Position numbers and translations under genes: made by a program
Notes under the pieces: generated by a model
The model's input: the letters and a program-made list of their open reading frames with translations, nothing else
Told to the model about the DNA's origin: nothing
Database searches by the model: none
Assembly (NCBI RefSeq): GCF_964213995.1
Contig: NC_135813.1
Location: forward strand, 79,174,001 to 79,238,000
Length of the DNA: 64,000 nt
Source: Mustelus asterias
Lineage: Eukaryota
Reading direction: 5' to 3'
Shown: positions 1 to 29,717 of the stretch, in pieces
Layout: each line of letters starts with the position of its first letter
Numbering within the stretch: position 1 is the first letter of the stretch

Positions 1-35
1 GGAGAATTCCTCCTCCAAGGCTTGATCTCATTTGC

Positions 36-56
36 ATCTTAGCCAAAAGGCCGAGA
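36..56 (-). pseudogene. U2 snRNA 5' fragment (U2 nt 7-27)
   Basis: Reverse complement TCTCGGCCTTTTGGCTAAGAT matches vertebrate U2 nt 7-27 exactly. After an 11-nt insert, U2 sequence resumes as AGATCAAG (21-28). Confidence 0.8.
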
Positions 57-131
57 TACCGCTTTTAAAAATTGCCTCATATGAAACTTAAATGCAACCC
101 AATGACCTCAACCAAGCACAGCATCCGCATA

Positions 132-158
132 ACTACACTTGATCTTAGCCACAAGGCC
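132..158 (-). pseudogene. U2 snRNA 5' fragment (U2 nt 11-37)
   Basis: Reverse complement GGCCTTGTGGCTAAGATCAAGTGTAGT equals U2 nt 11-37 with one mismatch, including the branch-point recognition sequence GTAGT. Confidence 0.8.
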
Positions 159-842
159 ATTCATGAGCCTATCCATAGCCATGATGTGGAGAATCTTAAC
201 ATCATGTTTACCCCTATCCATAGCAACAGAGTGTGAGAAGCAAGCAATCTGTGATTGGAGGAGGAACAACTCTGGTGGCAACGAGTGTGCTCCAGAAAGA
301 GAGGCATAGGCAGGATTAGAGAGATAGGCTGTCATGCTGTGCGTGGATGGGAGGAGGCTGGCTGCCGGACCAGGAGAGGCTGGTGAGCGGGCAGGTGTGG
401 GATGCATGGTGAGGATGAAGAGACCCATTGTCCGGGGTGTGGGAGAGAGAGCGATCGCATGTGGGAGAGAGGGAGTAATGCGAGTGTGGGAGGGAGGGGC
501 GAGTGAGCGTGGGGGAGAGAACACATCCAAGTGTGTGTGTGTGTATGTATGTATATCTGGCTCACTCAGTCTCAGGATTCTCACTCACCCTCACACTGTA
601 ACACCCAATCAAACCTACACACATGCACAGTGGGTGAGGGTGAGTGAGTGAGCATCGAGAGATTGGGAGTGAGCCAGGCAAACAGACTCTGTCCCTCTCA
701 CATGCTAATGGTGATCTTTATTAATTACTTTTTTAAATTATCCATTCATTGTTTTATTTTTGCTCAGCAAACTGTTCTTCATACCTCAACTTTATTTTGA
801 AATTCATGTTTTCTGTTGAGCCAAACCTTATCTTTCTGAAAT

Positions 843-1051
843 AAAAGCAAAATACTGCGGATGCTGGAATCTGAAACAAAAAAAGAAAATGCTGGAAAAT
901 CTCAGCAGGTCTGACAGCGTCTGTAGGTAAAGAATAGAGCCAACATTGAGTGTAGATGAAGGGTCATCTAGACTCAAAACGTTGGCTCTACTCTCTCCCC
1001 ATAGATGCTGTCAGACCTGCTGAGATTTTCCAGCTCTTTCTGTTTCTGCTG
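843..1051. mobile_element. Penelope-like palindromic non-autonomous element with 13-bp target-site duplication
   Basis: Inverted arms (GCTGGAAAATCTCAGCAGGTCTGACAGC / GCTGTCAGACCTGCTGAGATTTTCCAGC) around a decayed hammerhead core. ATCTTTCTGAAAT occurs at 830-842 and 1052-1064. Confidence 0.75.
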
Positions 1052-1394
1052 ATCTTTCTGAAATTTGTTCATCGGAAATGGAAATGTGAAAAGGTTAGAG
1101 AAGGCTGTCCGAACTCACAATCACCCAGTCTGATCCTCATTGTACTCTCTCCCGATAGCTAAACACATTTATCACTAATATTTTAATTAATAGGTTTCAA
1201 AATAAACTTTAACATTGTAACATGCTATTGATTTTGAATCACAACATACACATTGATAAAGCAAATGGTGAAGGAATTATCATTTTAAGTTGAATTACAT
1301 GAAAAATTATAATGCCAAATAATACGTTGTCGCCATGATCTAAATAGCTGAAAATTCTTTTACAATTGGCGTTTCTTTCAAATGCTAACAGTAC

Positions 1395-1528
1395 CTGAAG
1401 TACAAGAAGGACATCTAACTGTTGCTCTTTGGTGTACATCTCAAACGCAACTCGAAATAGTCCCTGAATGCTGTAAAACCACAAATTGTTCACCACAGTT
1501 GGAATCTTCAGTCCTTCAAATCGAAATT
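1395..1528 (-). CDS. Unidentified gene, coding exon 3: (E)FRFEGLKIPTVVNNLWFYSIQGLFRVAFEMYTKEQQLDVLLVLQ; gene continues off the left edge
   Basis: Acceptor TTGTTTGCAG, donor CAG/GTACTG, open frame, phase 1 start matches the preceding exon. Confidence 0.8.
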
Positions 1529-1772
1529 CTGCAAACAAATGTTTTCAGACATCATAAATAGAAGTGAAAGAGAAATGGAAAAGAGCTCATTTCGAAGGCT
1601 GCCATCAACACTGCGGACAATCTACAGATGTCAAGGGCAGCAAAGGCAGTTACATCATTAGAAATGGGGGAAATCACAGTAAAAACTAAAGCATGCAGGG
1701 AAATGACCTATAAAAGAGATACAACTGTTCATGAAATAGCTGATTGAAAACCAAAGAAAGTCATGAGTGAAT

Positions 1773-2046
1773 GACACGGTGGCACAGTGGTTAGCACTGC
1801 TGCCTAACAGCACCAGGGACCCGGGTTTGATTCCCGACTTGGGTCACTGTCTGTGTGGAGTTTGCACATTCTCCCCGTGTCTGCGTGGGTTTCCTCCGGG
1901 TGCTCCGGTTTCCTCCCACATTCTGAAAGACGTGCTGGTTAGGGTGCATTGACCCGAACAGGCGCCAGAGTGTGGTGACTAGGGGAATTTCACAGTAACT
2001 TCATTGCAGTGTTAATGTGAGCCTTACTTGCGACTAATAAATAAAC
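1773..2046 (+). mobile_element. tRNA-derived SINE (HE1-like head)
   Basis: A box TGGCACAGTGG, B box GGTTTGATTCC, tail ...CAGTAACTTCATTGCAGTGTTAATGT...TAATAAATAAA. Tail-only copies occur at ~7905-8045 and ~10695-10797. Confidence 0.85.
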
Positions 2047-2400
2047 AAAAAATAAATTTAAAAATGTATAGCACCAGGGTTAAACCACATCTTGAGAACT
2101 GTGTCTAGTTCTGGTCATCAAAACAAAGAGAGGCACTTAAGGCATGGAAATATTGCAGAGAACAGCCACATAGATTCCCGAGAGTAGGGATCAGCTGAGA
2201 GATGAAAACAAAACGAGAGAAATTTTGATGTTGCAAACTAGAAATGAAGCATTTGGGGCATCTTATTGAAGTACACAAGATAAATCTAGAAAATTATGTT
2301 AAATAAAGATGTGTGAGGATGACAAAGGGAACATGATTGGTAAACTCTTTTGAATAGCCCTATAGATTCTACTGGATTCAAATGAGAATTAACATAGTAC

Positions 2401-2530
2401 CTGAACTAAAGCTGAGCTTAGTTGCTAATCCTTTCTTTGCAAATTTTGCATGAATTCTTGGATGATTTTCAGTACGGATGCCAGTTTTCGCAACAACATC
2501 AGCACCAAGAAAAAGAGGGGTCAAGCTCTC
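2401..2530 (-). CDS. Unidentified gene, coding exon 2: ESLTPLFLGADVVAKTGIRTENHPRIHAKFAKKGLATKLSFSS
   Basis: Strong polypyrimidine acceptor TTTCTCTCTTTCAG, donor TCAG/GTACTA, 130 nt open; phases 0 and 1 fit both neighbouring exons. Confidence 0.8.
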
Positions 2531-4499
2531 CTGAAAGAGAGAAAGAAAAATTTTAAAATGTAAATATATTACTAGATATAAAATCTATCGACCATATTGT
2601 TTTGTTTTCTTTTTTATTAGATTTCCGTGCACCATGTTTCATTCCAACAATTACTTCAGTAAGAATAAATTTCAGGCTAACATTTTCTTTTAAAATATGG
2701 AAAGACAATTCATTATTTGGACACTTGGATTTTGTATCAAGAAGATTGCAAGTTCACCTTTGGATTGGGAGTGAGAATGCCTTTTTCAAGTAATCACCTC
2801 ACCAGCCTGGTACTTGAGAGGGGCAGAACAGTATGCTTTTTGCACTGCAATTATTTTAATTGATGGGGGAAGCAAGTGGTTCAAAGGCAAAGGCTTGTGT
2901 AAATCACATGACAGGGATGAGTTTTAACTTTTGAACTTGTTTTTGAATTCAGTTGGAATGGAACTGAGAAAGTGATAAGCTGTCCAGCTTGCATTCTCCT
3001 TGTCTTGCCAGAGATAGAATGGTTAACAGTACCTCGCTAGGAAAGAGTGAGTATGTGTGGGGGGTGGCAGAGTGTCCTTGGGGCTTGGGAGTGGGTGAGG
3101 GAGTGTGTTTGGAGGATGGGAGAGAGAATGAGTGAGTGTGTCTGTGAGGGGTGGGAGAGTGCGAGTGTGTGTGGCAGAGAGCAAGTGAGTGGGTGGGGTG
3201 GTAAAGAGTGAGTGAGAGCGTGTGGCAGAGAGAGTGAATGAGTGAATGGATGGATGGGTGGTCGTTCACAAGAGAGGGAGTGGGAGACTGAGTTTGTGGA
3301 GGTGAATGGAAGCCTGCCTAGTCTCAGGTTTCTGACTCATTCTTCACAAGCACTCACATACACTGATCCCAGTGACCCTCTCACCTGCTAGTTATTTCTA
3401 TTACGTTTGTTTTTAAACTTATGACATTGCTGTATTTTTGCTCAGCAATTGATTCTTTCCTTAAATCTTAACTTTTTTTTGAAATTCAGTTTATTTTTGT
3501 GCAAAACCTTGTCTTTCTGAAACTTGCTCATCGACCCCTTGAATGAGAAAGTATGTAAATGTGGCCCCTGAACAAAAAACTTGGACAAGTCTGGACTAGA
3601 TAAAATGCACACTCCCCCCATCCCAGTCATAACATAATTCTCTCTGAGGCTTAATAATCCAATACCTGAGCAAGGTTTGTAGGCTTCTGATTATCAACCA
3701 GCATGAGTCATTGCAAGTAATACTCGGTCTATGAGTAATTAAGAATGAAACCAAGTGACTGCAGTACCACCTAGCTGAACAACAGTGGAGAGGTATTGGA
3801 GAGGGGTGTGGTCAACTGTGTCAAAGGATGCAAACAGTTTATCATGAGCATTATAAATGTAGATGCTGAAGCTGTGGTTGCTAATGAATTTACGAAGGGT
3901 CCTTCAACTAAAAACAAGTTTTGAGAACCACAAATCTAGGCTGGTATTCCAAGTGTACTATCCGAAATGCCACATGAATGAGACATTAAACCAAGGCCCT
4001 GACAACCCTTTCAAGTTGGCATAAAAGATCTTGTGACAATATTTTTAAAATAGTAGAGTCTTCTCTGTGTCCTGGCCAATGTTTATCTCTCAACTACAGG
4101 TTATCTGATCATTATCACATTGCTTCTTGAGGGACATTGCACAGATTGACTACATTTCAATTAAGGTACTACATTAGCAGTTAAGTGCCGAGTTGTAAAA
4201 GGCACTGTATAAATGCAAGACTTTATTTTTTCTTTTAACTCTTAATTTTGTTTTGACAAACCTATTTTGTCTTGTGCAGTTTTTAACCATTTTGTTTAGC
4301 CTGGACTTTAAATCTATACAGCGCTGAATAAGATTGACATTTATGCTTTTGTCCCTTTATACCACACAAAGAAAATAAAGAAACAAACACTGACTACAGA
4401 GAGTTTTTGTGATTGAATTCACATTTCATTTACTCAAACACAGCAACCAAGCAATGATTCATATTTGCATTGCTATAATGCATTCAGTGGTAATTGCTA

Positions 4500-5335
4500 A
4501 CTTTTTTTATTAATTCAAGGGATATTGCCTTCACTGGCCCGGCCAGCATTTATTGCCTATCCCTAATTTCCCTTGAACTGGTAGTGAACTGCCTTCTTGA
4601 ACCACTGCAGTCCATGTGATGTAGGTAAACCTGCAGTGCTATTAGGGAGAGAAGTTCAAGATCTTAACCAAGCAACAGTGAAGAAGCAATGATATATTTC
4701 CAAGTCAAGGTGGTGAGTGGCTTGGAGGTGAACATCCAAATGGTGGTATTCCCATGTATCTGCTGCACCTGTCCTTCTAGACAGTGGTGGTTGTGGGTTT
4801 GGAGGGTGCTGCCTAATTTGGTGAGTTCCTGCAGTGCACCTTGAGATGGTATACACAGCTGCCAATGTTCATCAGTGGCAGAGGGATAGAATGTTTGTAG
4901 AAGGGATAGCAATCAAGCAAGATGGTTTGTCCGGGATGGTGTCAAGCTTCTTGAGTGCTTTTGGAGCTGCACTCATTCAGGCAAGGGGAGAGTATTCCAT
5001 CACACTCCAGATTTGTGCCTTGTACGTTGTGGACAGGCTTCGGGAAGTCAAGAGTTGAATTATTTGCCACAGGATTCCTAGCCTCTGGCCTTTTCTTATT
5101 ACCACAGTATTTGATATGGCTAGTTCAGTTCAGTTTCTGGTCAATACTAACCCCCATGATGTTGGCAGTGAGGGATTCAACAATGGCAATGCCATTGAAT
5201 GTCAAGGGATAATGGTTAGATTGTCTCTTATTGGAGATGGTCATTGCCTGGCCCAGATGTTCTTTGCCACTTGTCAGCCCAAACCTGGATATCATCTAGG
5301 TCTTGCTGCATTAAGACATCAACTGCTTCCATAAC
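4500..5335 (-). mobile_element. CR1-group LINE 3' fragment
   Basis: Family tail (reverse complement of GGGCAATAAATGCTGGCC...) and decayed ORF2 C-terminus. The same family occurs at 19690-20550, 37245-37812, 43915-44845, 45825-46060 and 62735-63380. Confidence 0.75.
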
Positions 5336-5750
5336 TTAATAAAGGGAACTTCAAGTGTTACTGAATCCAATGCTATATCTATTCTAAGCCTTTGCTTTGC
5401 ACTCTCAAATTTCAATTTTGGTTTTTAATGTATTCAAATAAATTAATTCATTATAAAAACGTACATTAAGCTATCATACTCTCCTGTTTGAAATGTAAAT
5501 GATATTTAAGAATTAGGAATTTACAAACCCATATCATACAAGACTACAGGCCAAGTGTTGGAGAATGGAATTAGAAATAGATAGGTGCTTGTTAGCAGCA
5601 CAGACACAATGGGCTGAAGGGCCACTTTCAGTGTTCGAAAACTCTGTGACTAACGTTTCATCATCCAAACAGACTTTGGAACTTTACATAAATAATAATC
5701 AAATTTAATATTTAAATAATACCAACCTCCACCTGATAATCTTGACACAC

Positions 5751-5849
5751 CTTAATTGAATCAGGAGGACTCAAGAATACAAATCTGATTTTCCTGAGAC
5801 CCACACCCCATTCTGGCAAACGCACAGAATAACGTTCAAGAGACATCAT
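5751..5849 (-). CDS. Unidentified gene, first coding exon: MMSLERYSVRLPEWGVGLRKIRFVFLSPPDSIK
   Basis: ACCATGA Kozak context with an in-frame TGA two codons upstream, 33 open codons, donor AAG/GTGTGT, phase 0 matches exon 2401-2530. Confidence 0.65.
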
Positions 5850-5944
5850 GGTTCAATGTTCACCACATCCCTCTGGAGGTATAGAATTACTCAGATCCCA
5901 TTCCGAGAGACACTCCAAAGTAAAAAGAAAAAGAGGTGTATGTT

Positions 5945-6060
5945 GAACCAAACCAGAAAATGCTGGGAAAATGTCAGCAGGTCTTACAGCATCTGTGGAG
6001 CGAGAATAGAGCCAACGTTTCGAGTTTGGATGACCCTTCGTCAGGGCTGGTAAATGTTGA
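5945..6060 (-). mobile_element. Penelope-like terminal-repeat fragment carrying a hammerhead motif
   Basis: Same family as 843-1051 and 35863-35998. Confidence 0.7.
6010..6048 (-). ncRNA. Minimal type I hammerhead ribozyme motif
   Basis: AGCC-CUGACGA-A-GGGU(caucca a)ACUC-GAAAC-GUU-GGCU. Core is intact, stem I is AGCC/GGCU, stem III is palindromic ACGU, cleavage triplet is GUU. Confidence 0.6.
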
Positions 6061-6140
6061 AATATGCAGCAGGCCGATCAGCATCTGAAGGAGAAAGGCG
6101 AGTGTCTCCGGCATTCATTAGCAAGGTGGCCTCGGCCTAC

Positions 6141-6400
6141 CAGAATCCCACTCATTTTTGGCTTGAAAATTTAACTGGGGTTTCAAACAATTTGCTCCTC
6201 GCAATTTCTTTCAGCTGCACACAACAATTGGTCTTCACATCTACAGGAGCTTCATTGCCAGAAGGCTCTTCGGTGTCTGGAGACTCCGGCACCTCATTAA
6301 TATCAGCAGCGATAATAATCCCTGGTTAACAACTAGAGCTGACTGATTCAGGCCAGGCAGCTCCCCTCCATCACCATGGAAGCGGCCCAGGTCACAACCG
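6141..6400 (-). other. Probable 5' non-coding exon of the divergent gene
   Basis: Donor CTG/GTAGGC at 6140 next to the CpG promoter; contains only short uORFs. TSS unknown. Confidence 0.35.
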
Positions 6401-7150
6401 CTTTGCACTCTGAACCCCGCCCTTTAACCCCCCCTCCCCAACCGACGTCACTGACCGCTCAGTGACAAGATGGCCGCCGAGAGGGTGGAATTGGATTTTG
6501 GGGACCGCGAATTGTTCGAGGAGTTTGAGGATTCAAAGCCTTCTCACATCCGTTTCAACGACTCGGAAGACGCGGGCGAGGCGGAGACGATGAGGAAGCA
6601 GCTGCTGGAATTCGAGGAGAGAGTGGGTTGCCTGAAGGCGGAGAATATCCTTTTCCGTTAAAAGGAAACGAGCCTCACAAAAATCAAACGGGGCGCCTCG
6701 GGAGCGATTGGCTCGTGTCGGAGAGGCCGCGTAAAGGAGTCGGGGCAGAACGGCAGTTTAACGGCGTTCGCTGGCTGCCCGCAAGCTTTCACTCTGCTCC
6801 TGTTTAGGTCCCGGTTACCCAGGTGTTTTTTTTTTAACAATCTGATTTTTAAAAATTGGTTTTGGTTTTGCTTCTTGGCTTGGCTTCACCGGATAGGCCC
6901 GGAACTCAGGCCTGCGAGTCATCTCATTGCAGCTTCCTCGTTTCGGTTTCCTCAGGAATCCGATCGACCACAGGAATTAGGAGTAGAAGTACGCAATCTC
7001 CTGGCCTGCAAACAAATGGAGCGGGGCGGGAAAGAGGGGTTTTTACCGCTCCTTGCGGCGTGGCTGGCTTGCATGGCTTCAAACTACCTCGTTTGGAACA
7101 ATTTTTACTCGAGCTAATTTTGAAGTACATTTGCGGCACTGGATTTCTTC
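6330..7150. promoter_or_regulatory. CpG island / bidirectional promoter
   Basis: CpG-rich in an otherwise CpG-depleted background. Contains GC box CCCCGCCC, CRE-like CGACGTCA (6443-6450) and YY1-like AAGATGGCCGCC over the ATG. Genes diverge on both sides. Confidence 0.8.
6470..6644 (+). CDS. ZCCHC8: ZCCHC8 exon 1
   Basis: MAAERVELDFGDRELFEEFE... matches the ZCCHC8 N-terminus (FGDxELF); ends at the U12 donor ATATCCTTT. Confidence 0.95.
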
Positions 7151-8444
7151 GTGCAGAACTGGTTGTAAATTCCGATGCTTTGAAACTTGCACCCTTTTCA
7201 ATCTTTCTATCACACTTGTAGAGTATTTATTTCTGCACCGAAATAACTTTGATTTATCCGTTTATGGTCAATCTGTAAGTCATAGAAAATATTTTTAAGA
7301 TTCTTAAAATCTTAAATGTTTGCTATCGTAATACTGGTAAATGTCGTAGTAGATCACTATTATTGCAATAAGGATTATGGTATGGCGCATTAATCAGACG
7401 GAGTAAAACTGGTCCAGGCTGTAATTCTGGATTCAGTGCACATTTGCACAATAATTGTAAGATATGTGTAAAGCGAAACCTCTTCACATCGGTGAAGTGA
7501 TAACACACGTTACGTCTTTGATTTGAAACGCTGTCTGCCGTGTTTGTGGACCTGAGTTCTACCGATAGGCGCCACAAAGTTCTCCAGTCAAGAAAAACGG
7601 CCTTCACCAACTACCTGTCAAATTCAAATGTTTAGCAGATTATTCTGACATTCAGAATGGTTAGACATTAAGTTTCAAGTTGTAAGGCAGTCTGCTTGCT
7701 TTCCACTGGACGTATCCTATATCAAACAGAGAGTGTGAGGCAATGTTCCTGATCCACTCTCCTTCCCACCACTTATTTAATTCCGAAATCTTATCACCAC
7801 ATGTTGTTACATTGTGTACTTTGGTGTAAAACCAAAGTTGAATGCGTGTAATGACATCCAGGGAAATAAATCTAGCATTTTATTTTTGCTGCATTATTGT
7901 GCAGATATTGCTTGGGTGCATTAGCCATGCTAAATTCTCCCTTGGTATACTGAAACAGGTGCAGGAGTGTGGCGACTAGGGGATTTTCACAGTAACTTCA
8001 TTGCAGTGTTAATATAAGCCTATTTGTGACGCTCATAAATGAACTTTGAAAAAGATCTCTGTCAATTTCAAACAAAAATGATTGGAAATGCTTGGTGATG
8101 AGGTGCAAATTTACATTGTGTTTTGACATGATGTGAATTATGTTCGCAGGCACCATTTCATTTAATCTGTGAGATGTCAGTATGGATCTTAGTGATTCAA
8201 GTTTGAAGTTTATAGAAGGAAACACCTAATTATAGCTTGTGGTCATTATTTAGTAAATAGAACATTGTGTAACTATTATAGTTTGGTGCATAATGAAAGA
8301 TGGGTTGAATAATGTAGAACTAGCTCAGTGTACTTGAATGCATTAGTTCAGTCCACAGAGCTCTTGAAAACTGTTTTTTAAGAAGTTTGAACTTTAATGC
8401 TTCTTCTCAGTATGTAAGCGTCTTTCCCTTAACCATGAGCTAAC
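6645..8444 (+). other. ZCCHC8: U12-type AT-AC intron (ZCCHC8 intron 1)
   Basis: 5' splice site ATATCCTTT, branch site TTTCCCTTAAC (8423-8433), 3' AC at 8443-8444. Splicing restores ENQELKRKLN. Confidence 0.95.
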
Positions 8445-8487
8445 ATCAAGAACTGAAGAGGAAGTTGAACTTGTTGACCCAGCCAAG
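8445..8487 (+). CDS. ZCCHC8: ZCCHC8 exon 2 (NQELKRKLNLLTQP, coiled coil)
   Basis: 43 nt, donor AAG/GTAACA, homologous peptide. Confidence 0.93.
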
Positions 8488-8903
8488 GTAACATGAATAT
8501 TGAGAGCCGAACATTTCACACAACTCTAAATGATGCCTTCATAATGTTTTATGTAATTGTTGAAACCGATTAGTTCAGCATTTAGTCACAAAATCATCTA
8601 TTATTTTCCAATGTATACAGTGTTATCTCTATACATGTAAATAGATTGTGATTTGGCCAGTGCATATTCTAATTTTTTTCTAACCTTTCAACACCACCAT
8701 TATCTAAGGTGTTAAATCCTAGCCTATAGAACTTGAACCAATTGCTTGGCATATTTGTGAAATGTAAAAAGATTACATGGGGAAAATATAATTAGTTTTG
8801 TGGCTTGTATTTGACTTTCAACATAAATGTTAATTTGGATTGGATTCCATATTCTTCAAGTTTTGAAAGTTTACATTAAACTTCTAACCTTTATTTGTGC
8901 CAG

Positions 8904-8978
8904 TAAAATAGTTGTGAGTGACTCCAAAACAGATGGTCCAATGGTTCAGATCTTGTTTATGAACAACAATATTTCAAA
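8904..8978 (+). CDS. ZCCHC8: ZCCHC8 exon 3 (SKIVVSDSKTDGPMVQILFMNNNIS)
   Basis: AG/GT boundaries, DGPxxQILFMNN motif, consistent phase. Confidence 0.93.
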
Positions 8979-9083
8979 GTAAGTTTCAGTTTTAAGCATT
9001 TTTAAAAGTTTTTTTGCTTCTTCCTTTGCAGTTTTTCCAGTTTGACACCAGCCATTCTGATTTGTGCACCAATTTAATTTCAG

Positions 9084-9189
9084 ACAGTTTCATCAAGAAA
9101 TTGAAGATTTCATCACGGGTTTAGTTGAAAAATATGAAAGGGAATTACAAAGTGACTCTGAAAAAACATCATTTAACATGAAACCTCAG
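9084..9189 (+). CDS. ZCCHC8: ZCCHC8 exon 4 (KQFHQEIEDFITGLVEKYERELQSDSEKTSFNMKPQ)
   Basis: AG/GT boundaries, homologous peptide, consistent phase. Confidence 0.93.
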
Positions 9190-9269
9190 GTGAATAAATG
9201 AGAAAATATAGCTTTTTTCAGAGAATTGTTTTAAAATCTGTAAGTAAAAATACATACATTTATTTTCAG

Positions 9270-9347
9270 CCATCAAGTGTGCTGCTAGAAGAGCACCTGA
9301 ATGTGAAAACTTCAAGTACAGTAAAGAAAATAAAAGAAGCATTTCAT
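9270..9347 (+). CDS. ZCCHC8: ZCCHC8 exon 5 (PSSVLLEEHLNVKTSSTVKKIKEAFH)
   Basis: Follows an 80-nt intron; acceptor TTTTCAG, donor GTAAGT. Confidence 0.92.
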
Positions 9348-12300
9348 GTAAGTGGGAAGTTCAACTATCAATATTTATTTGAATTGTTCAAAGCTATGAG
9401 ACAGAGCTGCTTCCATTCTTGGTCTCAGGCTGAGTTAGCTGATCTCAGCTAAGTGATGTACTTGGCAGCTGGAGTAGGTAAGAAAAATTAAATTAGATTC
9501 CTGTACCTACTTGTTATCTAGTAACCCCTGTTAATGCATATGTATACCAGATGAGGATGGGACTGAGCTTTTGCGCGATGTGTTCTAATCATTTTCATGG
9601 CTGTGGTCTGTTGGACAATCAGATGGATCATGAATTATATTCAAATTTATTTAATCTTCTGAGGGGAAGTTTTAAGGAATTTCTCCCAACAGCCAAGGCA
9701 GGTCTTCAGAGTATCTGAATGTCCATTCTATATTGTTCAATCATGGTTATCTCTCTGGTCCTCATAATTTATTAAATTATTAAATTCCTTATTTGGTTAT
9801 CATAGACGCAATTAAAGCTTTCAGTATTGTTGCTAACTGGGTGAGAATCAGTTTTTAAATTCGGGAGTTAAGCAACACAGTACTGACTGCTATGCCAGTG
9901 ATCTTTCATATATGGGATGGAGGGAGAAAATGTTTTCAGTTGTTTGAAGCTTAATAACTTTGTTCTCAAGGTGCTTTGCTCTGTGCTCAGTCTTGCATCT
10001 AAATTCTCTCTTGGCATTAAAAACTAGATCATACTCCGTGCCAATTTTTTCAATAAGTCTCTTTTGCAACTAAGTTGCAGAAATAGCACTTGCATTTCTC
10101 TGATCCTAGTAAAATATCGATTTACTTTTGGAGGCAGTGTGGCCAGACATATGTATGAGGTAGCATCATTAATCACCTGTGCAAGTTTAAAGTCATGCTT
10201 TGATACATCATCAAATGCCATTGAGATGCCTTGATACATAATCAAATAGCATTGAAATGCCATGATAAATACCATTGAGATGCAACTTGGTATTTGCTGA
10301 GCTTTGTTTAGCGGCCACAAATGGATCATATTCTTTTAATACATAATTTTTTCATTTCATTTATACTGTTGTTCATTTTAAAACCGAACCCCTTCATGTT
10401 TTTATATTTCATTTTCCCTGTTTAATTGTGCATTGTTCAGTATTTAATCTATTCAGACTCGTGACTTGGTTATATAGTTTATTCTTGCATGTAAATTTTA
10501 TATTCTGAGAATTGTCATCAACTTTGTTATTTGAATAGTGTTCACAGTAGGGAAAGCAGAATTGATTTCTGAAGAACTTCAGTCTTTGCGTTTCATTGTT
10601 TTTCCAATTATTGACACCTGTTTTTTGTAACCAAGTCTGCTATATTTAAAGAAACATTGACAGCATCCCGCCACTGTGTTCATTTATTACTAGTGTACCC
10701 AAAAAGGCACCAGAGTGTGGCGAATTGGGGGGGTTTTCACAGTAACTTCATTGCAGTGTTAATGTAAACCTACTTGTGACACTAATAAATAAACTTAGGC
10801 TAACTTAGTCCATAATTTACTGGCCCATGTTTCATATTATTTTTCAATCCTAGAATAAAGTTTGGTATCCTCCAATTCTTGGATGCGGGTCTTATAGTTG
10901 TGGAACTCTTACTGAAAAAGTTGATCACAACCACACCTAATCCCTCTAGTTCGTTTGAGATGTCGTGTTTCTGGCCAAAGTACCTTAAAAGTTAATTCGA
11001 TATATATGTCACTTATCTCTTATCAATTTCTGAACTAATTGCTAAATCCAAAAGTGCACATAGGATTACTTTGGTACTTTGTTTGTATTTGTATTGTACC
11101 AAAGTTTGAGTTGATTGTCTGCACGTACATGGCTAAGACTGGTTTCCTTATCCTTATGGTAGACTGGATATGCTTGTCTACTACCAAATTAAAGGAAGAA
11201 TACTTAGTTTAAGTGCCAGTAGGTGGTTATTGAATACTAGCCTCTTGGAATCGGAACTAAAATAGTTCCAGTATCAGTATTTTGTCTTAATTTGTGAAGA
11301 AGAATTCAATATGCCTCCCATTTCTCGACACCTTCAACACTTCTGTGATGCTTAATGCTGGATTGATTTACCTGAAGTTTATCACACTCCTACTTCAGAA
11401 TAGCCAAAACATTTATTTCGATTCCAGCCCATATAATTTAATTTTCTATTGCTCTTAGCTCTTCTGAATTAATTTTAATTATTGAAAACTGACATTTGCA
11501 CAATTTTACCATTAATTGTTTCCTTGTATATTTTCATTTTGTGTTGGTAGGCCATCCAAAAAACTTTATTAGCAGTTTTAACTGATCTTAATCCCCATAC
11601 CTATGTAAAGTTAGTTTTATTATGAGCTACTAAATTCAAGGAAATTATTTCAAATAGTTTTGATAAAGTTATGAAATAGATTTAAAGTTTTCAAACAGAT
11701 TGGAAAACATGTTAAAATATATTAACAGAAGGCAATCAAATTTACGCAATACATTAAACTATTTGCATTAGGAAATTATCCTTGAAATTTGAGAAATATT
11801 TTACACAGGGTATGACATTACACTGACATTCCCAATGTCAGTGTTTTGAACAATTTATCTGTGCACTATTAGTTGAAGGGGCCACACTTGTTTGCTCCCA
11901 GATTCTGTTAATACTGCTGTGAGATGATCCCTTTCAGATGATTTCTGTTACCTCTGTGGGGGTGACACCTAATCTTTGCGATGCCACTGTTTTTCTAAAT
12001 ATAGTCTGGATGGGGTGTGGGTGGAGACTGCTTCTACCCTTCCACCCCATGACTTTCTGCATTGGTATTCCGCATTGAACTATACCTTCTCCAACACTTG
12101 TGTTTAATGAAATAGATGACTGGATTGCATCTTCCTCCATTCCTTTAGGTGGTTTTCTAGTGTTGATCATAAAGTTAACCAGTCTATGTCAATCCTAATG
12201 ATCCTCTCATGACACAGTTTTTGCAGGCAGTACAGTATGGGATTGCATACTGAACCACCTTTCTGTTGTAAGCACATTAATTCTTGGATGCACTATACTG

Positions 12301-16796: not shown

Positions 16797-17231
16797 GTAA
16801 AATAAAACCAATGAATTGCATTATCATAGCCTCCTTCTGTGCTGTATAATTCTATCAGACTCATCATTCTTGTGTCAACTTTTTGCAAGAGTTATTCAAT
16901 TAATCCCGGTCCCCTGCTCTTCCTAACAGCCCTACTGTCACAGGATATGCTGAGCGGAATTACTGCCGTAATTCCCCTTATGGAGCAATGTTGCCACTTG
17001 AAAAATGGCCCATCATTCTACTTTCCTACCTGTTTTTTTAAAAAAAAACATTTTGTGCAGTAAGCTGCATCTATTAATTTTGTAGCTAAAATCTTTGTAT
17101 TATGCACAAAAATACCTTTTAAACCATTAAATTGTAAATGTCCTCTGGAATGACGTCTTGCCCAGCCACCAATATTTATTGTTTATGGCATTAAATAATG
17201 TTTTTTTTGTTTAACTTGATTGTTTCTGCAG

Positions 17232-17374
17232 TGTAGAACTTAAAGAAGCTCTGGGGATGACTGATGAAACTCTTCCACCTTTTATTTATCGAATGCGTCG
17301 ATTGGGTTATCCACCTGGATGGTTGCTGGAGACCCAACAAGAGAATTCTGGGCTTGCTTTATATGATGGAAAAG
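17232..17374 (+). CDS. ZCCHC8: ZCCHC8 exon 10, PSP domain (RBM7-binding)
   Basis: SVELKEALGMTDETLPPFIYRMRRLGYPPGWL, the PSP signature. Confidence 0.97.
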
Positions 17375-28600: not shown

Positions 28601-28842
28601 TGATTTAGTCTCTCCCTACAGCCATCCCAGCACATTTAAAATATGCTGTTGTAAATATACTGGTCTGAGGCACCAAGCTAACTTACCCAGCCTTTATGTA
28701 TCACAGTATCAGTGACTGTTATCATTGATAATTGGCAAGATTCCTGAATAAACCAAATTTTACTTGTGAAGCAAGGCTACCTTGAAAAAATTACTTCTGA
28801 GGGCTCAGTTTTACTGTTGCATGTTACCCCTTTATCCTGTAG

Positions 28843-29717
28843 GTTCAGAGACCCCACCAAGGCTATTTCAACCTTTTCCACCCTTACCATCTGGTTGCCC
28901 ATTAACTTCATCGCCACCTCCTCTACCCAAAGGAACACCACCTTCTACACCACCTACATTTGTCCCACCTGCACCACCTACTCCAACTCCACCTCCACTT
29001 CCAAAAGACACGCCTCCCTCTACTCCTTCAAATTGCTCTCCAGCAGGACGTTCATTGCAGGAAGGAAGTGCCCAAGCTGCAACTGCTGGGAATGCAGATA
29101 AAACTTTGGATGCAGATGTCTTGTCACTAGAAGAACTGGAAGAACAACAGCGGTTAATATGGGCTGAGTTGGAACGGACTGAAAGCACTAATAGTGAGAC
29201 AGAAGGTCCTTGTGATTCTCCTTTAACCAAGAATTCTGCAAATTCCTCACCAGCAATAAATACACCCGACAACTACATGGAAATTGAATCCAATGATAAA
29301 GTGGGAACAGTTGACAATAACATGAGGAGTCCAAGTGCTGAAGCATCGTCGGTTGATTCCAGAGATGAACCAATCAATTCGGTGGGACATGCTTCGTATA
29401 AGGAAGAAAGTACTCCACCTGAAAATTCCAAAATGGAAATAGAGGGCAGCAGAATCGCTCAAGATTCTACCCCAACACCGGAAGCACCTATTGGAGGAAA
29501 TCGAGTATGTTTAGAGGAAACGGAAGCATCTGTCACCAGTGCTGCTGTTTCAGAAGCAAATCAGGAGAACAGGATCTGTTCTGTGCCTGATGTGAGTAAA
29601 TTTGCTACTGGCATTACACCTTTTGAATACGACAATCTTTCCGAGGCAACTGGAACTTACCTTAAACTCAGGAGCTTATTGAAGAATTCTCCAAGAAACA
29701 GAATGAAAAATAAATAA
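28843..29717 (+). CDS. ZCCHC8: ZCCHC8 exon 14 (proline-rich region and MTR4-binding C-terminus, stop)
   Basis: FQPFPPLP, duplicated PPPLPKxTPPSTP, LSLEELEEQQRLIWAEL and VPDVSKFATGITPFEY...LLKNSPRN. The real exon starts at the CTGTAG acceptor, not at the ORF-track start 28782. Confidence 0.96.

Follow-up and report, generated by a model that had tools for sequence, protein, structure and literature searches.

An ancient single-copy animal gene beside ZCCHC8 in the shark Mustelus asterias encodes a predicted winged-helix domain and a putative HCF-1-binding motif

Results

A spliced gene of four exons

We analysed a stretch of 64,000 nucleotides from Mustelus asterias (contig NC_135813.1, positions 79,174,001 to 79,238,000; hereafter the window), in which an uncharacterized minus-strand gene lies head-to-head with a plus-strand neighbour that we take to be ZCCHC8. 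A preliminary description had proposed a gene of three exons with a possibly domesticated BRO-N-like N-terminus. The locus is a real spliced gene of four exons and three introns (Table 1). When joined, the exons comprise 1281 nucleotides, and their exact translation is the database protein P0004 plus the stop codon. P0004 (426 amino acids, 'uncharacterized protein LOC144502790') is identical to the shark gene product. With exon 3 as the query we obtained 69 proteins: the best match is identical (LOC144502790), and most of the others are named si:ch211-110p13.9. The three exons recognized previously do not complete the gene at 1395, as exon 4 (894 nucleotides) follows just before the start of the window; a short gene of 121 amino acids or three exons is rejected.

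Exons 2 and 3 have AG/GT ends, compatible phases and canonical splicing signals by inspection of the sequence, and they stand as proposed, together with the ATG at 5849. The donor of exon 1 had to be moved. The position suggested before, 5751, is an in-frame GT but is unsupported: P0004 is eight residues longer at the end of exon 1, as results from a donor at 5727, and 51 of 54 aligned homologs have at least six residues at the extra segment. Moreover, contigs from all four runs examined (four studies) stop at 5726 and then carry the letters of exon 2. These runs are RNA by guess only, none being recorded as such; even so, the join shows a spliced molecule in related species. At 5751, the proposed junction with 2530, none of the contigs examined ended loosely, although contigs reveal presence and not absence. 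The junctions 2401/1528 and 1395/exon 4 are based on the database protein and its homologs. P0010 and P0069, from a ray and a fish, are short database proteins that end after exon 3 or contain intron letters, and correspond to intron read-through or retained-intron transcripts.

An animal gene that amniotes have likely lost

A genome-wide search found one copy of the gene in the shark genome. Full-length protein searches returned 411 matches for the shark query and 403 for a caecilian query, and the best 120 of each comprise cartilaginous and bony fishes, coelacanth, lungfish, caecilians, frogs and the axolotl. No amniote is named among the best 120 of either query, in which one (shark) and three (caecilian) rows lack an organism name. 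Since an amniote ortholog would be expected near the amphibians in the caecilian ranking, and none is found there, a loss of the gene on the stem of the amniotes (reptiles, birds, mammals) is likely. The absence from mammals suspected in the preliminary description is thus supported, and it probably holds for amniotes as a whole.

Searching 1.84 billion representatives with a profile gave 203 matches at E 0.001. The listing showed 150 of them; 11 of the 30 that were looked up name an organism, and all 11 are animals. The named invertebrates are amphioxus, an acorn worm, a crinoid, a sea cucumber, two snails, two bivalves, a bryozoan, a soft coral and a sea anemone. In a tree of 70 proteins, rooted at the midpoint and with weak deep nodes, the vertebrates group with full support and animal phylogeny is broadly followed. 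Judged from these sequences, this is an ancient, single-copy, vertically inherited animal gene that ranges from corals to frogs and salamanders. Three proteins encoded on ENA contigs of 4-21 kb (P0167, P0205, P0235) have full-length open frames, so that some lineages may possess intronless forms; in the tree, P0167 is placed with the protein of the soft coral. Many representatives of 180-450 amino acids cover the C-terminal part only; in all probability, gene prediction on genomic contigs took the long last exon for a gene of its own, and they do not form a separate family.

A predicted winged-helix domain

The protein has three conserved blocks: the N-domain (mean identity 0.61), the motif at residues 210-214 (0.83) and a C-terminal domain at residues 319-426 (0.74), separated by linkers with mean identities of 0.11-0.13. 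In the full-length model, the N-domain is confident, residues 155-239 are disordered (predicted local distance difference test, pLDDT, below 50), and the C-terminal half is helical at lower confidence. Refolding the N-domain from a natural ray protein of 138 amino acids with 94 homologs gave a pLDDT of 88.2 and a predicted template modelling score of 0.82. The predicted arrangement, i. e. a strand hairpin, a helix-turn-helix, wing strands and two closing helices, is that of the KilA-N/APSES/BRO-N/DHD winged-helix superfold. Invariant basic residues sit on the predicted recognition helix, and both models lack a helix between strands 77-81 and 99-103. Fold searches with the full-length model were dominated by a generic helical hairpin at residues 258-315, and a homodimer model of residues 238-426 scored 0.00 with an uncertain fold. 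The ESM Atlas held no usable match for the Xenopus homolog, and sequence searches of Pfam, PHROG and PDB returned nothing informative. In the crinoid homolog P0176 (Anneissia japonica, XP_033113538.1), a THAP domain is annotated at residues 5-78 (E 1.2e-12) ahead of the winged-helix domain, which may reflect either a genuine fusion or a joining of models during annotation.

A possible likeness to BRO-N in the predicted fold

Among the 50 best matches of the N-domain model in the viral structure library BFVD, 18 are named Bro or BRO-N, five are repressors or antirepressors, three KilA-N/N1R, 16 unnamed and eight other; TMq is 0.40-0.51 in the top 12, the best E is 0.006, and the result agrees with a BRO-N-type fold without being family-specific. 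Among solved structures, animal Ski/SnoN/Dachshund and fungal Mbp1 score level with the best viral match. Out of 48,161 chains, the ten with the best scores cover 83-99 residues and are one granulovirus domain and nine members of the winged-helix group, in which we count DdrC, Swi6 and Bqt4.

A BRO-N profile of 136 phage and prophage domains (335 less near-duplicates) aligned with our family by hhalign over 62 columns, in the register proposed in the preliminary description (P 0.014, probability 3%). Shuffled profiles scored as high in 9 of 140 cases (4/70 column-shuffled, 5/70 block-shuffled), and when a smaller profile was used the numbers were 3/80 and 9/80. The profile of seven shark Ski/Dach domains gave P 0.17, a score reached by 21 of 60 shuffles. 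The Pfam family Bro-N (PF02498) had no match above the gathering cut-off for the three exons, seven proteins or 93 proteins, was not among the 25 of 57 Pfam families shown for 95 members, and had no match in an exon-by-exon search of the shark genome, in which the eight Ski_Sno_DHD and two INI1_DNA-bd matches all lie away from the gene. A phage tblastn search gave matches only at E 5-8. Pattern scans, which are weak as they need near-exact peptide words, yielded 14 candidates in viral contigs and 134 and 20 in metagenome contigs, with no sequence relative among them.

The proposed BRO-N fold is therefore borne out in part: many viral structure matches bear the name and the profile pairs the motifs first noticed, whereas Pfam is silent. 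Domestication is not shown by the data, because no match reaches E 0.001, Pfam Bro-N gives no hit, and Ski/SnoN/Dachshund and Mbp1 score equally. If it occurred, it preceded the cnidarian-bilaterian split. The gene does not look like one carried by a DNA virus, phage or mobile element: it has a single copy, three introns and fixed neighbours, and the scans brought up no viral sequence relative. A recent viral insertion is rejected. By prediction, the domain would work in the manner of BRO-N/KilA-N, but we do not class it as a member.

A conserved HCF-1-type motif

Of 158 vertebrate proteins of at least 330 amino acids, 149 contain the motif D/E-H-x-Y (shuffled mean 7.7), as do 58 of the 125 non-vertebrate representatives that have the C-terminal domain, five vertebrate-like fragments being left out (shuffled mean 4.8). 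The shark version, D-H-N-Y-C, lies within the disordered segment. The motif is in the linker in vertebrates and amphioxus, and in an insertion inside the C-terminal domain in molluscs and many unnamed homologs; four proteins (P0171, P0182, P0193, P0273) carry four to five D-H-x-Y copies between the halves of this domain. Its flanks, with a small x, an uncharged next residue and a disordered surrounding, fit the rules for HCF-1 Kelch binding given in a preprint (bioRxiv 10.64898/2026.03.19.712392). HCF-1 binding is likely, the motif being a putative docking site.

Gene neighbourhood

Table 1. Features of the locus (window positions unless a contig is given)
Feature	Position	Strand	Remarks
5' untranslated part of exon 1	5850..5930	-	minimum extent; one contig continues beyond 5930
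Coding exon 1	5727..5849	-	ATG 5849, donor 5727; residues 1-41; first strands of predicted winged-helix domain
Coding exon 2	2401..2530	-	residues 42-85; strand and helix-turn-helix; conserved N63, R66, H68, K70, K73, G75, K79
Coding exon 3	1395..1528	-	residues 85-130; wing, strand with W101-F102-Y103, two helices
Intron 3, part in window	1..1394	-	exon 4 outside window
Exon 4	G000:C13:79173599-79172706	-	residues 131-426: acidic linker, D-H-N-Y-C 210-214, helical region, conserved C-terminal domain, stop
Neighbour, first coding stretch	6470..6658	+	ZCCHC8 by downstream PSP domain and gene order; name presumed
Neighbour, PSP-domain exon	17230..17355	+	domain match E 2.6e-15
CpG-rich stretch over neighbour start	6400..7199		CpG observed/expected 0.85-1.14 (0.31 window-wide)

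The head-to-head layout with ZCCHC8 described previously holds: the neighbour starts with an ATG at 6470 on the plus strand, and its PSP exon follows downstream. The CpG-rich stretch is likely a bidirectional promoter region common to both genes. A functional link to ZCCHC8 beyond this sharing was not adopted; no evidence for one was found, and none was searched for. On the contig (C13), Rod_C exons at 79.01-79.04 Mb (minus) and an exon with a SMAP domain at 79,168,048 (plus) precede the studied gene and the PSP exon. We take the three neighbours to be KNTC1, RSRC2 and ZCCHC8; the human order KNTC1-RSRC2-ZCCHC8 matches that of the shark, with the studied gene filling the gap between RSRC2 and ZCCHC8. 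Elsewhere in the window, a CRE-like TGACGTC is located at 6444-6450, between both genes and just upstream of the neighbour's ATG, and a proline-rich open frame of 315 residues without a Pfam match at 28770-29714 (plus) probably belongs to the neighbour as one of its late exons. Two short stretches at 30-155 (minus) resemble the 5' end of U2 snRNA; an Rfam scan of positions 1-12000, these stretches included, gave nothing at the gathering score.

Discussion

The observed exons, conservation, copy number, gene order and motif enrichment, together with the predicted fold, lead us to lean towards the view that this ancient single-copy animal gene encodes a protein that likely binds DNA or chromatin through its predicted winged-helix N-domain and likely recruits HCF-1 via D/E-H-x-Y. 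The protein would most likely be a nuclear regulator. The winged helix may bind DNA or nucleosomes, and by analogy with Mbp1 and INI1 we infer that the basic second helix (R66, H68, K70, K73) and the wing (K79, R87) would contact DNA. The linker motif would dock in the Kelch domain of HCF-1, so that HCF-1 partners could be brought to the bound sites, and the conserved helical C-terminal domain may bind a fixed protein partner. The gene was inherited vertically before its likely loss on the amniote stem. Two points weigh against the recruitment of HCF-1: more than half of the non-vertebrate set is devoid of the motif, and motifs that fit the consensus bind in some cases only.

As to the origin of the N-domain, it might have been captured from a BRO-N gene of a DNA virus or phage before the cnidarian-bilaterian split, with introns and HCF-1 motif gained later; the capture would resemble that by which fungi acquired their KilA-N/APSES factors. 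We regard this as possible, though rather unlikely. The Bro names among the viral structure matches and the better P of the BRO-N profile, in the expected register, as compared to that of Ski/Dach speak for capture, as does the lack of the wing helix that characterizes animal DHD-like domains (PMC4509781); the organism-named representatives, all of them animals, are in agreement with it, and a study on the viral origin of fungal SBF provides a precedent (PMC4862756). However, a virus-only library returns viral names by design and contains BRO as a very large family, the profile was drawn from phages and prophages only, shuffled profiles reach its score, Pfam Bro-N and PHROG give no informative match, and the weak contig scans brought up no sequence relative. 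The fuller scenario, in which a viral BRO-N domain captured at the root of animals gave rise to a family of HCF-1-recruiting factors with a new C-terminal domain, which corals, salamanders and the groups between them kept while amniotes lost it by deletion, is doubtful.

An origin from the winged-helix families of animals themselves (Ski/Sno/Dach, INI1, PHF10, BCOR, DNTTIP1) is about as likely as viral capture, and thus improbable as well. In this case, the domain would be a diverged protein-binding module of a chromatin complex rather than a DNA reader; the missing wing helix, the lack of profile similarity to the Ski domain (in a profile of seven sequences) and the invariant basic residues on the predicted recognition helix all argue against this. 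Finally, the fold match might be a chance likeness of a small alpha/beta domain and the motif conserved for other reasons, in a protein with an unrelated role. This is highly improbable: the best solved structures are nearly all winged helices, in agreement with an independent viral library, and the motif recurs at two different protein positions across phyla.

The gene model is already on record, and we found no description of the fold, the motif or the range in the literature searched. The name ch211-110p13.9 did not appear in the main texts searched or in the supplements of PMC6871517 and PMC10416458; other supplements (zebrafish expression tables, bioRxiv files) may list it. No paper was found that links amniote gene loss with ZCCHC8 or RSRC2, and searches for Bro-N with animal domestication turned up only unrelated papers. 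Few animal proteins are on record with this predicted fold, and the present family, so far unrecognised, joins them with a new layout of winged helix, HCF-1 motif and unassigned conserved helical domain that can be tested directly in zebrafish, Xenopus and axolotl. If true, a viral origin would make it one of the rare cases in which animals took over a transcription factor from a virus in ancient times, the animal parallel of that of fungal SBF/APSES.

Among known systems, the si:ch211-110p13.9 orthologs (RefSeq 'uncharacterized protein') include the identical annotated protein and are without a Pfam domain. With Bro-N of baculovirus BRO proteins and phage antirepressors, the shark domain shares the predicted order of strands and helices, the N-terminal position, the aligned strand-helix motif, the His and Gly of the second helix and the Gly-Leu helix start. 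The shark protein differs in being below Pfam detection and in its longer first hairpin and wing, and its gene is single-copy, spliced and vertically inherited; behind the N-domain come an HCF-1 motif and a C-terminal domain of another kind. DNA binding by BRO-A and BRO-C is cited in PMC7801670. As compared to KilA-N/APSES proteins (Mbp1, Swi6, Bqt4), the protein is animal rather than fungal, has neither ankyrin repeats nor a membrane anchor, and no such Pfam match was shown for any member scanned. The extra wing helix belongs to the Ski/Sno/Dachshund homology domain and INI1/SMARCB1 but is absent from our models, and sequence similarity to Ski/Sno/Dachshund was not detected. The THAP-family HCF-1 recruiters THAP1 and THAP11 consist of a DNA-binding domain, an HCF-1 motif in the linker and then a helical region. 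The shark protein would have the same layout, with a predicted winged helix in place of the THAP zinc finger, and the annotation of one homolog, that of the crinoid, places a THAP domain before the winged helix.
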